This document shows, in pieces, positions 3,982-5,768 of a stretch of 64,000 bases of DNA. The translations under genes and the position numbers were made by a program. Below the pieces are notes generated by a model. It was not told where the DNA came from, ran no database searches, and saw only the letters and a list, made by a program, of their open reading frames with translations. This DNA comes from Sulfolobales archaeon (GTDB taxonomy: Archaea > Thermoproteota > Thermoprotei_A > Sulfolobales > NBVN01): the NCBI GenBank assembly GCA_038841535.1, contig JAWBTQ010000004.1, positions 1 to 64,000 on the forward strand. Direction: 5' to 3'. Positions within the stretch are counted from its first letter, which is position 1. Every line of letters starts with the position of its first letter.

Positions 3982-4335
3982 GTGTCATCGGAAGGTGAGA
4001 TTGAAAAGAAGAGGGATATAAAAGTCCTCCTCTCAGTGATACCTCCAGCAGAAGCCTTGAGAAAACAAAGGAGCTCTCCACAAGAGAGGAGAGTGAAGCT
4101 GAAGTACAACTCTGTAGTAAAGACCGGTAGTCTCCACGTAAACCCAGAGCTGGCTAGAGAGCTCTCCATAGGTGATTACGCCGAGATCTCAGTTCACGGA
4201 AAGAGAGTAAAGCTGAAAGTTGTAGTAAGCGAGAAAGTTCCGCAGGGTGAAGTGTGGGGTTCTGCCGATTTGAGAACTCAGGGAATAGCCGATAACAGTA
4301 TCGTCACCATCAGGTCTGCTGCCCAGCAGAGCTGA
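3982..4335 (+). CDS. Hypothetical protein, likely double-psi beta-barrel (Cdc48-N / molybdopterin-dinucleotide-binding-like)
   Basis: GGTGA SD. Two similar halves, V(N)PELAREL.IGD.AEI and GEVW....LR..GIADNS.VTI, are typical of this fold. Confidence 0.6.
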   Translation: MSSEGEIEKKRDIKVLLSVIPPAEALRKQRSSPQERRVKLKYNSVVKTGSLHVNPELARELSIGDYAEISVHGKRVKLKVVVSEKVPQGEVWGSADLRTQGIADNSIVTIRSAAQQS

Positions 4336-4338
4336 GAA

Positions 4339-4346
4339 CTTAAAAG
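4339..4346 (+). promoter_or_regulatory. Putative TATA box for a leaderless aRF1 mRNA
   Basis: CTTAAAAG lies 30 nt before GTG 4369, the usual archaeal TATA-to-TSS distance. An alternative TATA-like TTATATA lies at 4354. Confidence 0.45.
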
Positions 4347-4368
4347 AGCCTTCTTATATAGTTCTTGG

Positions 4369-5485
4369 GTGTCGAGCATTTAGCTTTGAAAACCTCGAGA
4401 TTAGCAAGGAGGGGCTCAAGCCCCTCATCAAGGAGTTAAAGAAGTGGAATGCTCACGCAACAACCCTTCTATCTCTTTACGTACCTTCAGGTAGACCAAT
4501 AGGCGACGTAGTGAATATGCTTAGACAAGAGCTCTCTATTACTGAGAACATAAAGCTAAAAAGAACCAGGTCTAGAGTTCAGTTCGCTCTTGAGTCAGCT
4601 ATAGATAGGCTCTTGAAAATACCGAAGATACCCAGAAATGGACTCGTAGTGTTTGCTGGAGAACACGATGAAACGGGTGAAACTATAGTGCTAGTGTTCT
4701 CACCTCCTGAACCAATCAACGTGTTTTTCTATAGGACGGATAAGTACTTCCACACGGAGTTTCTTGAGAGCATGGTAGAGGAGAGTGACGTATACGGTCT
4801 AATAGTCATTGAGCGCGATGAGGCAACTATAGGCCTCTTAAAGGGTGGAGCTGTAGTAGTTCTAGATGAACTAGAGGCATACATACCTGGAAAACACAGT
4901 AAGGGAGGATGGTCCCAGAGGAGATACGATAGAATAATTGAGGAGATGGTCGAGGAGTTCTATAAAAAAGTTGGTGAGAAAGCTGGTAGCTACTTTATAC
5001 CACTACTAGAAGGAGGCAAGCTAAGGGGTGTCATAGTCGGAGGTCCTGGGTACTCGAAGCTGGATTTCGTTAAGGGTGGATACCTTGACTATCGCCTTCA
5101 GAAAGCGGTTCTAGGGAACCCTCTAGACGTGAGCTCTCAGGGTGAGCCTGGTCTCAGGGAACTAATTGAAAAAGCAAAAGAATTTATCAAGGAGACGAAG
5201 TATCATAAGACTAAGGAGGTCTTAGATGAGTTTAAGTACCACCTAGCAAAAGACGATGGACTGGCCACGTACGGTGAGCTAGAGATAGCTAGGGGACTTG
5301 AGTTAGGTGCTGTTGAGGCACTCATCATCGTAGAGGATTATCCTAAGCTAGCAGAGCTGAAGAATCTAGCTGAGTCGAGGGGTACTAGAATAGTAGTTGT
5401 TAGTGAAGAGTTCATGGAATACGAGTGGCTTAAGAAGGCTTTTGGCGGAGTCGTAGCTATACTAAGATATCCGCTGATTAGCTAG
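4369..5485 (+). CDS. prf1: Archaeal peptide chain release factor aRF1 (5' end needs a +1 frameshift; GGW in place of GGQ)
   Basis: The frame from 4379 reads FSFENLEISKEGLKPLIKELKKWNAHATTLLSLYVPSGRPIGDVVNMLRQE, followed by NIKLK, YRTDKYF, GKHSKGGWSQRRY and FGGVVAILRY. There is no in-frame ATG/GTG/TTG between the stop at 4286 and 4511. Confidence 0.9.
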
Positions 5486-5768
5486 TTTCCTCGCCGCCTC
5501 CTTCCTCTTCGCTGAGGAGGTCTAAGAGAATTTCGTAGAACTCTTCTTTCTCCTGCTCAATTTCCTCCTGGCTTCTCGTCAGCCCTCTCCCTTCACTCAC
5601 GATAGACGTAGTCTTTACTTTAGATTCCGAACCTGCTTTACCAGATAGCCTGTACTTTTCTCCTCTCTTAGATACCTCTTCATAACCGCAACTTGGGCAT
5701 TTGTATATGTAGTTATTATCTCTTTTCTGAGGCACCATTACTGTTCCACACTTAGGGCAGAACTTCGT
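5478..5768 (-). CDS. TFS/RpoM-family zinc-ribbon protein (TFS2-like: N-terminal ribbon plus acidic tail)
   Basis: (ACG)KFCPKCGTVM..YKCPSCGYEE..TTSIVSE..acidic tail. It lacks the C-terminal ribbon with the catalytic DE motif. Confidence 0.8.
   Translation of the reverse strand, partial: TKFCPKCGTVMVPQKRDNNYIYKCPSCGYEEVSKRGEKYRLSGKAGSESKVKTTSIVSEGRGLTRSQEEIEQEKEEFYEILLDLLSEEEGGGEETS

Follow-up and report, generated by a model that had tools for sequence, protein, structure and literature searches.

Can an archaeal release factor terminate translation when the glutamine of its GGQ loop has been replaced? This question is raised by the aRF1 gene in a 64,000-nucleotide stretch of DNA from a Sulfolobales archaeon (GTDB group NBVN01; NCBI GenBank assembly GCA_038841535.1, contig JAWBTQ010000004.1, positions 1 to 64,000 of the forward strand; hereafter the window). 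To our knowledge, GGQ is the one motif common to the unrelated bacterial and archaeo-eukaryotic release factors, and all release factors known to us carry the catalytic glutamine at the position where the window aRF1 has tryptophan. The contribution of the glutamine side chain and of its methyl group has been debated for two decades on the basis of mutants, with water positioning, nucleophile exclusion, and little beyond the backbone amide as the candidate roles. Judged by its sequence, the window gene is a clear aRF1 ortholog and thus appears to be a canonical release factor that lacks the "universal" glutamine. Its features are as follows.

4382..5485, + strand: aRF1 main reading frame, from the first codon after a proposed +1 shift to the TAG stop codon at 5483-5485
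4430-4777, + strand: eRF1_1 domain (Pfam profile, 46.9 bits)
4547..4558, + strand: NIKL, the NIKS-type stop-codon recognition motif in the form usual for the lineage (NIKLKRT in Aeropyrum pernix aRF1)
4730..4741, + strand: YRTD, corresponding to the YxCxxxF region in the form usual for the lineage (YRTDK in A. pernix aRF1)
4793-5191, + strand: eRF1_2 domain (Pfam profile, 137.1 bits)
4904..4918, + strand: catalytic loop GGA GGA TGG TCC CAG, G-G-W-S-Q, placed by alignment with A. pernix
4910..4912, + strand: TGG (Trp) replacing the Gln of GGQ, placed by alignment to 3AGK
4916..4918, + strand: CAG, the +2 Gln and candidate relocated catalytic Gln, invariant in GGW and GGQ relatives
5207-5476, + strand: eRF1_3 domain (Pfam profile, 75.4 bits)

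The translated loop region (YIPGKHSKGGWSQRRYDRII) bore out, in the DNA and in frame, a preliminary description of this locus, which had read GGA GGA TGG TCC CAG at 4904-4918 as GGWSQ. The window protein aligned end to end with the A. pernix aRF1 3AGK (E 7e-123), and the Trp stood exactly opposite the GGQ glutamine in this alignment (kmGGQSQRRY in A. pernix, skGGWSQRRY in the window). This assignment was supported by the aRF1 equivalog model TIGR03676, which scored the protein at 431.6 bits (cut-off 234.7). Among 26 relatives (alignment A1), residues N50 I51 K52 L53, Y111 R112 T113 D114, S172, and Q173 were all invariant, as was the loop segment GG.SQRR apart from the W position. The decoding motifs NIKL and YRTD and the three domains, described earlier as intact, are indeed present, and the motifs are normal for the lineage, being the same in A. 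pernix, and are no peculiarity of this protein. An AlphaFold model built on alignment A1 (AF2; mean pLDDT 87.2) had aRF1 as its best structural match (TM 0.71-0.74 to 3agk). The catalytic loop was the lowest-confidence part of this model (block 161-170, pLDDT 65), and the +2 Gln was the first residue of a long helix (H173-204).

Thus, the window protein shares sequence, the three domains, fold, and single copy number with canonical aRF1 (TIGR03676; 3AGK/3VMF; Sulfolobus acidocaldarius 8HKU), together with NIKL, YRTD, and the loop flanks PGKH..GG.SQRRY. It differs from canonical aRF1 in the Trp that stands for the GGQ Gln and in a genome that lacks an Mtq2 ortholog. Class-I factors of the aRF1/eRF1 type are recognized by the GGQ tripeptide at the tip of the M-domain loop, and the window protein carries GGW instead; for this reason, it is classed by descent as an aRF1 ortholog, though one without the functional signature of the class. 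Other identities were rejected. The TIGR00111 score for Pelota/Dom34 was 92.4 bits, below the cut-off of 177.65. A VLRF1, baeRF, or DUF460 protein was discounted by the presence of eRF1_1 and by matches of 46 bits to acVLRF1 and 41 bits to baeRF10, compared to 137 bits to eRF1_2; moreover, the acVLRF1_NCBI model gave 29 bits against a cut-off of 125.

The TGG codon itself was found in independent assemblies. All sampled words (100%) from the stretch 4300-5500 were present in 11 runs of 5 hot-spring metagenome studies, which may include the source of this DNA, and a contig from a further study (X12, record 7) spanned 4722-4968 with 0 differences; no indels across the site were seen in the comparison with these runs and this contig. 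In 42 species genomes this codon was always TGG, and both flanking Gly codons varied among GGA, GGC, GGT, and GGG. Sister genera had CAG or CAA at this codon, so that the change from Gln to Trp takes two substitutions. The preliminary description had argued from this count that a single base-call error was unlikely, and its argument was strengthened by the runs, the further contig, and the 42 genomes, which all have TGG. Reads with CAG or CAA, which it had named as the observation that would speak against the Trp, did not emerge, 100% of the sampled words of 4300-5500 being present in the 11 runs. Sequencing error was therefore excluded by the agreement of independent assemblies and by the retention of TGG in 42 genomes.

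The same runs (X1, X8, X12) also contained a relative that is about 89% identical (131 differences over 1163 bases, 4338-5500) and that was deeper in X8. An RNA run (X13) yielded a 1285-base contig with 122 differences over 4460-5500, probably from the same relative; this contig alone is no sign of transcription.

The tryptophan is a property of a large group of archaea. Of the 52 species genomes in the family, 42 (from 10 of 13 genera) contained a DNA pattern for GGWSQRR, each in one copy, and GGQ (CAG or CAA) occurred in 8 genomes from 3 genera; neither was found in the 2 others, which are incomplete. The GGW subclade consists of uncultured hot-spring and hydrothermal archaea of Desulfurococcales-like type, and all of the GGW genomes are metagenome-assembled. 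Among the best 120 protein clusters of a large protein collection, 39 carried GGWSQ, 80 carried GGQSQ, and 1 carried GGKSQ, with "Sulfolobales archaeon," "Desulfurococcaceae archaeon," and Zestosphaera as source names; the Zestosphaera tikiterensis record is a member of the GGW clade. The GGKSQ cluster (P0052) has a single member, an otherwise GGQ-type aRF1, and could reflect a genuine variant or an error. Outside the family, a pattern search of 273 other genomes of the order revealed no aRF1 with GGW. Nine GGW pattern matches in other families of the order were rejected: five, judging by the matched letters, lacked Ser after the Trp, three lay in open reading frames (ORFs) of 12-56 amino acids, and one belonged to a DUF460 protein.

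In a maximum-likelihood tree of 83 distinct rows (35 GGW and 48 GGQ) from which the W/Q residue had been masked, all 35 GGW rows fell on one side of a single branch (ultrafast bootstrap [UFBoot] 99, SH-aLRT 95), and one change was sufficient in 98% of the bootstrap trees. An earlier quick tree had left out 5 rows that lacked the anchor. The sister group of the GGW clade was the GGQ part of the same family, which implies that the change occurred once, from CAR to TGG, presumably by way of CGG (Arg) or TAG (stop). On this tree, the Q-to-W change is shown to trace to one ancestor of a large subclade and to have been retained while at least 10 genera diverged. The survey of GGW across relatives that had been suggested at the outset thus returned a single clade with a bootstrap value of 99 that accounts for 42 of the 52 family genomes. 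A literature search found no published description of a GGW aRF1, and Figure 2G or the supplementary alignments of Burroughs and Aravind (2019) might already show one.

A 161-amino-acid ORF on a metagenome contig (L294) has eRF1_2 as its best Pfam match (59 bits), is 31% identical to the window aRF1, and carries GVPSKHSAGGWSQRRFERVIQE. It may represent another aRF1-like lineage with GGW.

The gene appears to be the only class-I release factor gene of its host. The host genome (1.56 Mb, 83.8% complete) contains one aRF1 gene and one pelota gene, with one eRF1_2 domain; pelota is a separate gene (G000:C1:199399-199911), and no bacterial RF-1 domain was found in this genome. Likewise, all 21 GGW genomes among the 41 relatives searched gave hits to aRF1 and pelota only, including genomes that are 97-99% complete (G005, G012, G017, G019). 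A GGQSQRR pattern was absent from the GGW genomes, save for one chance match in a non-coding frame, and a GGQCQR match in G006 was rejected because it sits in a non-coding frame. dN/dS (the ratio of nonsynonymous to synonymous substitution rates) was 0.016-0.066 in close GGW pairs (9 of 12 pairs measurable, the others having saturated dS) and 0.015-0.059 in close GGQ pairs (7 of 10 pairs measurable). The GGW aRF1 is thus under strong purifying selection, like its GGQ relatives. At the 90%/10% level, the W/Q column was the sole column that separated the 35 distinct GGW proteins from the 48 distinct GGQ proteins, and no compensating changes within aRF1 were found in the 83-row alignment. Together, these comparisons suggest that the GGW aRF1 is most likely the organism's single, essential class-I release factor. 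The preliminary description had left two readings side by side. A paralog drifting toward ribosome rescue did not stand up to these data, given that there is neither a second GGQ copy nor relaxed selection; a housekeeping aRF1 with an altered loop and no methylation was upheld, by the sole aRF1, the purifying selection, and searches that found Mtq2 in none of the 42 GGW genomes (see below). The search for another GGQ aRF1 in the genome, which it had recommended, revealed the one aRF1 and the one pelota and nothing else.

Passages of PMC6144793 state that the aRF1 glutamine is methylated by Mtq2 in Haloferax, that Mtq2 orthologs are "found in all archaea," that GGQ is "universally conserved," and that Trm112 partners other methylases as well. 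Trm112 is present in the host genome (PF03966, 45.7 bits, G000:C1:130342-130593). By contrast, no Mtq2 ortholog was found there: the best match to TIGR00537 reached 36.8 bits against a cut-off of 87 and was a 273-amino-acid ORF of another methylase type. Hence, of the methylase pair that the preliminary description had proposed to look for, Trm112 was recovered and Mtq2 was not.

This result was extended by homology searches of 41 relatives at E 1e-5 and of all 52 family genomes, some of them incomplete, at E 1e-11. The methylase matches split into two clades (SH-aLRT 98). Class A is Mtq2-like, with VYxPSxD...NPPY and a full-length match of 43-132 bits, and class B is a HemK-like paralog of about 230 amino acids with FNPTxTLS...NPPYLP. 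Class A, the Mtq2 ortholog, was found in none of the 42 GGW genomes and in 19 of 24 non-GGW genomes. The 19 are made up of 3 of the 8 from the family and all 16 from other families; direct reading gave GGQ for 5 of the latter, and for the others it is the absence of GGW that was established. A repeat search with the nearest class A protein (from G013) at E 1e-6 had the same outcome. Class B was patchy, occurring in 6 of the 42 GGW genomes (among L139, L144, and L156-L161) and as second copies beside Mtq2 in G015, G026, and G034. The Mtq2-like matches in the six GGW genomes were therefore rejected as Mtq2, since they belong to the separate paralog clade. The genes that flank Mtq2 in G013 lie apart in the host genome and hence are uninformative about a clean deletion of Mtq2.

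The ribosomal target of the loop was compared in an 801-nucleotide piece of 23S rRNA containing the peptidyl-transferase ring, from 10 GGW genomes and 20 other genomes of the order. No difference between the two groups was found in the segments that we take, by E. coli numbering, to contain A2451, G2505-U2506, U2584-U2585, and A2602. Position 12 of this piece, far upstream of these segments, was T in 9 GGW genomes and C in the 20 others (L164-L193), which may be mere ancestry. In G012, G029, G030, G047, G054, and G058, the 23S match broke at query position 657/658 and resumed several hundred bases further on, which fits an rRNA intron at this point in some genomes.

The loop sequence itself is familiar from other members of the aeRF1 superfamily. 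As set out in part of Burroughs and Aravind (2019), classical aeRF-1 proteins have GGQ, VLRF-1 has GxuQ, and aVLRF-1 and acVLRF-1 have GGxSQ; the window loop, GGWSQ, fits the GGxSQ form of the VLRF1-like and baeRF families. Aside from aRF1, DUF460 homologs were found in 41 of 41 relatives searched, with loops GGWSQ (2), GGMSQ (3), and others that lack Gln; one of the pattern matches described above (G124) is a 566-amino-acid DUF460 protein with the loop SPGGWSQRRY, and the DUF460 loop of G031 is GGWSQQRF. In the host, the DUF460/VLRF1-like protein (692 amino acids, G000:C3:116961-118595, - strand, L198) has the loop AGGSSANRF, which lacks Gln, and Gln was absent from the DUF460 loop in all family members examined (GGSRS or GGSSA in the others). 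A link between the GGW aRF1 and the DUF460 loop was therefore rejected, because family members with a GGW aRF1 and those with a GGQ aRF1 alike lack Gln at this place. Among 149 DUF460 (PF04312) representatives from a library of 1.84 billion proteins, GGWSQ was the commonest loop (34), followed by GGMSQ (20), and the +2 Gln was kept in 67.

A metagenome pattern scan, in which 80 loci were read as a sample of at least 120 matches, contained one true GGW aRF1 (82% identical) and many long ORFs with GGWSQRR[FY] that were 22-34% identical to the window aRF1 over the M domain. Ten such ORFs had as their best Pfam family baeRF family 2 (4), baeRF family 10 (4), acVLRF1 (1), or eRF1_2 (1). The statement in the preliminary description that GG(W/F)SQ loops occur in acVLRF1 and baeRF10 therefore holds, both in part of Burroughs and Aravind (2019) and in the DUF460 and metagenome loops. 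The occurrence of GGWSQ in the DUF460, baeRF, and acVLRF1 families implies that it is a recurrent, selected loop of the superfamily. VLRF1-type proteins (Vms1/ANKZF1 with GxuQ; aVLRF-1 and acVLRF-1; DUF460) share an identical GGWSQRR[YF] loop with the window aRF1; unlike it, they are predicted rescue factors that combine the loop with other partner domains and have no domain for stop-codon recognition, so that the likeness is confined to the loop of a protein with a full eRF1_1 domain. Similarly, baeRF families 2 and 10 (PF18844, PF18854) share the GGWSQRR[FY] loop in the long metagenome ORFs and differ in being bacterial, in being 22-34% identical over the M domain, and in not being the cell's terminating factor. 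In Thermoprotei, the aRF1 loop is GGQSQ with both glutamines (A. pernix, S. acidocaldarius), and the Halobacterium factor has GGQSAQ.

We favor, with modest confidence, a working housekeeping aRF1 that would have switched to a VLRF1-type GGWSQ loop without methylation. Such a factor would still decode stop codons and insert its loop into the peptidyl-transferase center. The ancestral GGQSQ loop of Thermoprotei would have offered two glutamines, and in the GGW clade the water-coordinating role would have passed to the second of these, resulting in a GGWSQ loop of the VLRF1-like/baeRF kind (GGxSQ / GxuQ), to whose catalysis the backbone amide at the W position would still contribute. Loss of the canonical Gln would leave N5-methylation by Mtq2 without a target, which fits the missing Mtq2 ortholog. 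The stop-codon reading domain, the two glycines, SQRR[YF], and the aEF1-alpha-binding C domain are all unchanged in GGW aRF1. More tentatively, although it may well prove right, termination here could proceed without the GGQ glutamine or its methylation, with the catalytic Gln moved two residues down and with ancestral GGQSQ as a two-glutamine intermediate that would link the loop types of the aeRF1 superfamily. A bolder form of this proposal is that release may follow a chemistry other than canonical ester hydrolysis; for eukaryotic Vms1/ANKZF1, another kind of cleavage has reportedly been found.

Several points weigh against this switch to a VLRF1-type loop. The invariance of the +2 Gln is not specific to GGW proteins, since all GGQ relatives have it. 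A passage of PMC12440015 states that yeast with Q182E eRF1 could not be propagated, which implies that the Gln position is not freely substitutable elsewhere. Archaeal VLRF1-like and baeRF proteins are themselves only predicted to be peptidyl hydrolases (Burroughs and Aravind 2019), and no cultured representative of the GGW clade was seen. A GGQ genus of the family (g8) lacked class A in 5 of 5 genomes (G016, G048-G051; 82-93% complete), so that loss of Mtq2 neither requires nor is explained by the Q-to-W change; because the GGW clade and g8 both lack class A, at least two losses of Mtq2 occurred in the family, and methylation of the aRF1 glutamine may be dispensable in g8 too. Finally, the class B paralog in six GGW genomes could methylate something.

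Four other explanations have to be set beside the loop switch. That the codon is not read as Trp, through recoding or RNA editing to CAG, or that it is an assembly artefact, is so improbable as to be scarcely credible: UGG encodes Trp elsewhere in the same gene at a place where all relatives have Trp (LKKW, 4445-4447), W16 and W343 are near-invariant or invariant among relatives, and concordant assemblies from several studies and 42 genomes keep TGG. Nearly as hard to sustain is the idea that the gene is decaying or belongs to a paralog on its way to a rescue function, with the true GGQ factor hidden in the unassembled 16% of the genome. The incompleteness of the host genome leaves room for such a factor, and yet the GGW genomes that are 97-99% complete lack a second aRF1, no GGW genome has a coding GGQSQRR pattern, dN/dS is 0.02-0.07, and the protein branches at the position expected of the species' ortholog.

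The chief rival, a functional housekeeping aRF1 that works on the backbone amide and the two glycines alone, is possible, if rather doubtful. The side chain at the Q position would then be dispensable and the +2 Gln non-catalytic, and the Trp would simply fill the pocket by stacking or by excluding other nucleophiles. This explanation draws on bacterial release factors, in which the backbone amide of the Gln catalyzes hydrolysis according to a passage of PMC6742477, on the unchanged peptidyl-transferase center, and on the loss of Mtq2 in a GGQ genus, which suggests that side chain and methylation were already weakly constrained in the family. However, Trp is found without exception in 42 genomes despite the many one-step neighbors of TGG, which implies a specific role instead of mere tolerance, and the recurrence of W, M, or F followed by S-Q in loops of the aeRF1 superfamily goes unexplained if the Gln is irrelevant. 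A GGW aRF1 that merely decodes stops and recruits recycling factors, in the manner of Pelota, and leaves the ester bond to another protein is distinctly improbable. Dom34/Pelota offers a precedent for an aeRF1 fold that works without catalysis, as covered in part of Burroughs and Aravind (2019). Against this precedent, no other hydrolase candidate was found: the genome has a single eRF1_2 domain and no RF-1 domain of the bacterial kind, and the DUF460/VLRF1-like loop lacks Gln in the family members examined. Moreover, inactive relatives lose loop conservation according to the same part of that paper, and GG.SQRR is invariant here.

The loop switch, if it is correct, would connect canonical termination with the type of loop found in the rescue-like VLRF1 and baeRF families. 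The GGW clade is a natural, testable exception to the "universal GGQ." According to a passage of PMC10516650, activity of aRF1 on eukaryotic ribosomes has been reported. It amounts to a natural experiment in which one Gln in the sole release factor became Trp and was long kept, with the peptidyl-transferase center untouched and the methylase gone, and for which the GGQ sister genera serve as controls, including one in which GGQ was kept and the methylase lost.

The region upstream of the gene raises a separate question, namely, how the aRF1 frame is entered. This frame has no ATG, GTG, or TTG upstream of 4511, and yet 42 conserved residues precede this position. Two features lie upstream.

4340..4346, + strand: TATA-like box TTAAAAG, about 26 nucleotides upstream of the GTG of the upstream ORF (uORF)
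4369..4383, + strand: short uORF GTG TCG AGC ATT TAG (M-x-x-I-stop), whose frame runs one base ahead of that of aRF1, with a proposed RF2-like +1 site, A TTT AGC

The box, as cTTAAAAg, is kept at the same distance in relatives of the genus, and its spacing suggests that the aRF1 mRNA is leaderless and starts at the uORF. A +1 shift on A TTT AGC, as proposed here, would enter the aRF1 frame. We defined the cassette as [AG]TG, one or two codons, ATT, TTT, GTT, or CTT, and then TAG followed by C or T. Of 84 distinct aRF1 genes of the order, 61 have a cassette of this form in front of them (26 of 36 GGW genes and 35 of 48 GGQ genes), including records (among L005-L114) named Thermogladius, Staphylothermus, Thermosphaera, and Ignisphaera, and 49 of the 61 cassette-bearing genes lack an in-frame start. 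In addition, a cassette is present by eye in a GGW record outside the 61 (L009). In one GGW subgroup (the L027 group), an in-frame GTG takes the place of the cassette, and one genus (the L023/L024 group) has TAT TAG C at the shift site. Because the cassette is order-wide and occurs with GGQ and GGW alike, it arose before GGW and does not depend on it. The earlier suggestion that weaker termination by the GGW factor would fit a need for this feedback cassette is accordingly not supported, since similar fractions of GGQ and GGW genes carry it.

The cassette resembles the frameshift site of bacterial RF2 (prfB), given as CTT TGA C in a passage of PMC3711429, in that the stop codon of a short ORF follows NUU and a shift onto UUU (A TTT AGY in the archaeal genes) leads into a main ORF in the +1 frame. 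It differs from the prfB arrangement in a uORF of 3-5 codons, a probably leaderless mRNA, the stop TAG, the archaeal host, and the lack of a demonstrated Shine-Dalgarno stimulator. A literature search found no publication on an archaeal aRF1 cassette. Database starts of aRF1 proteins are scattered (P0001-P0120): the window record (P0001) has 361 amino acids, which fits a start at ATT 4400, and others begin at an internal Met, Leu, or Val. These N-termini are mis-annotated, probably because of the cassette.

Directly upstream of the aRF1 promoter, an ORF of 117 amino acids (3982-4335, + strand; stop TGA at 4333-4335) has a weak match to a Molydop_binding-type barrel, at 25.3 bits, which is below the cut-off.

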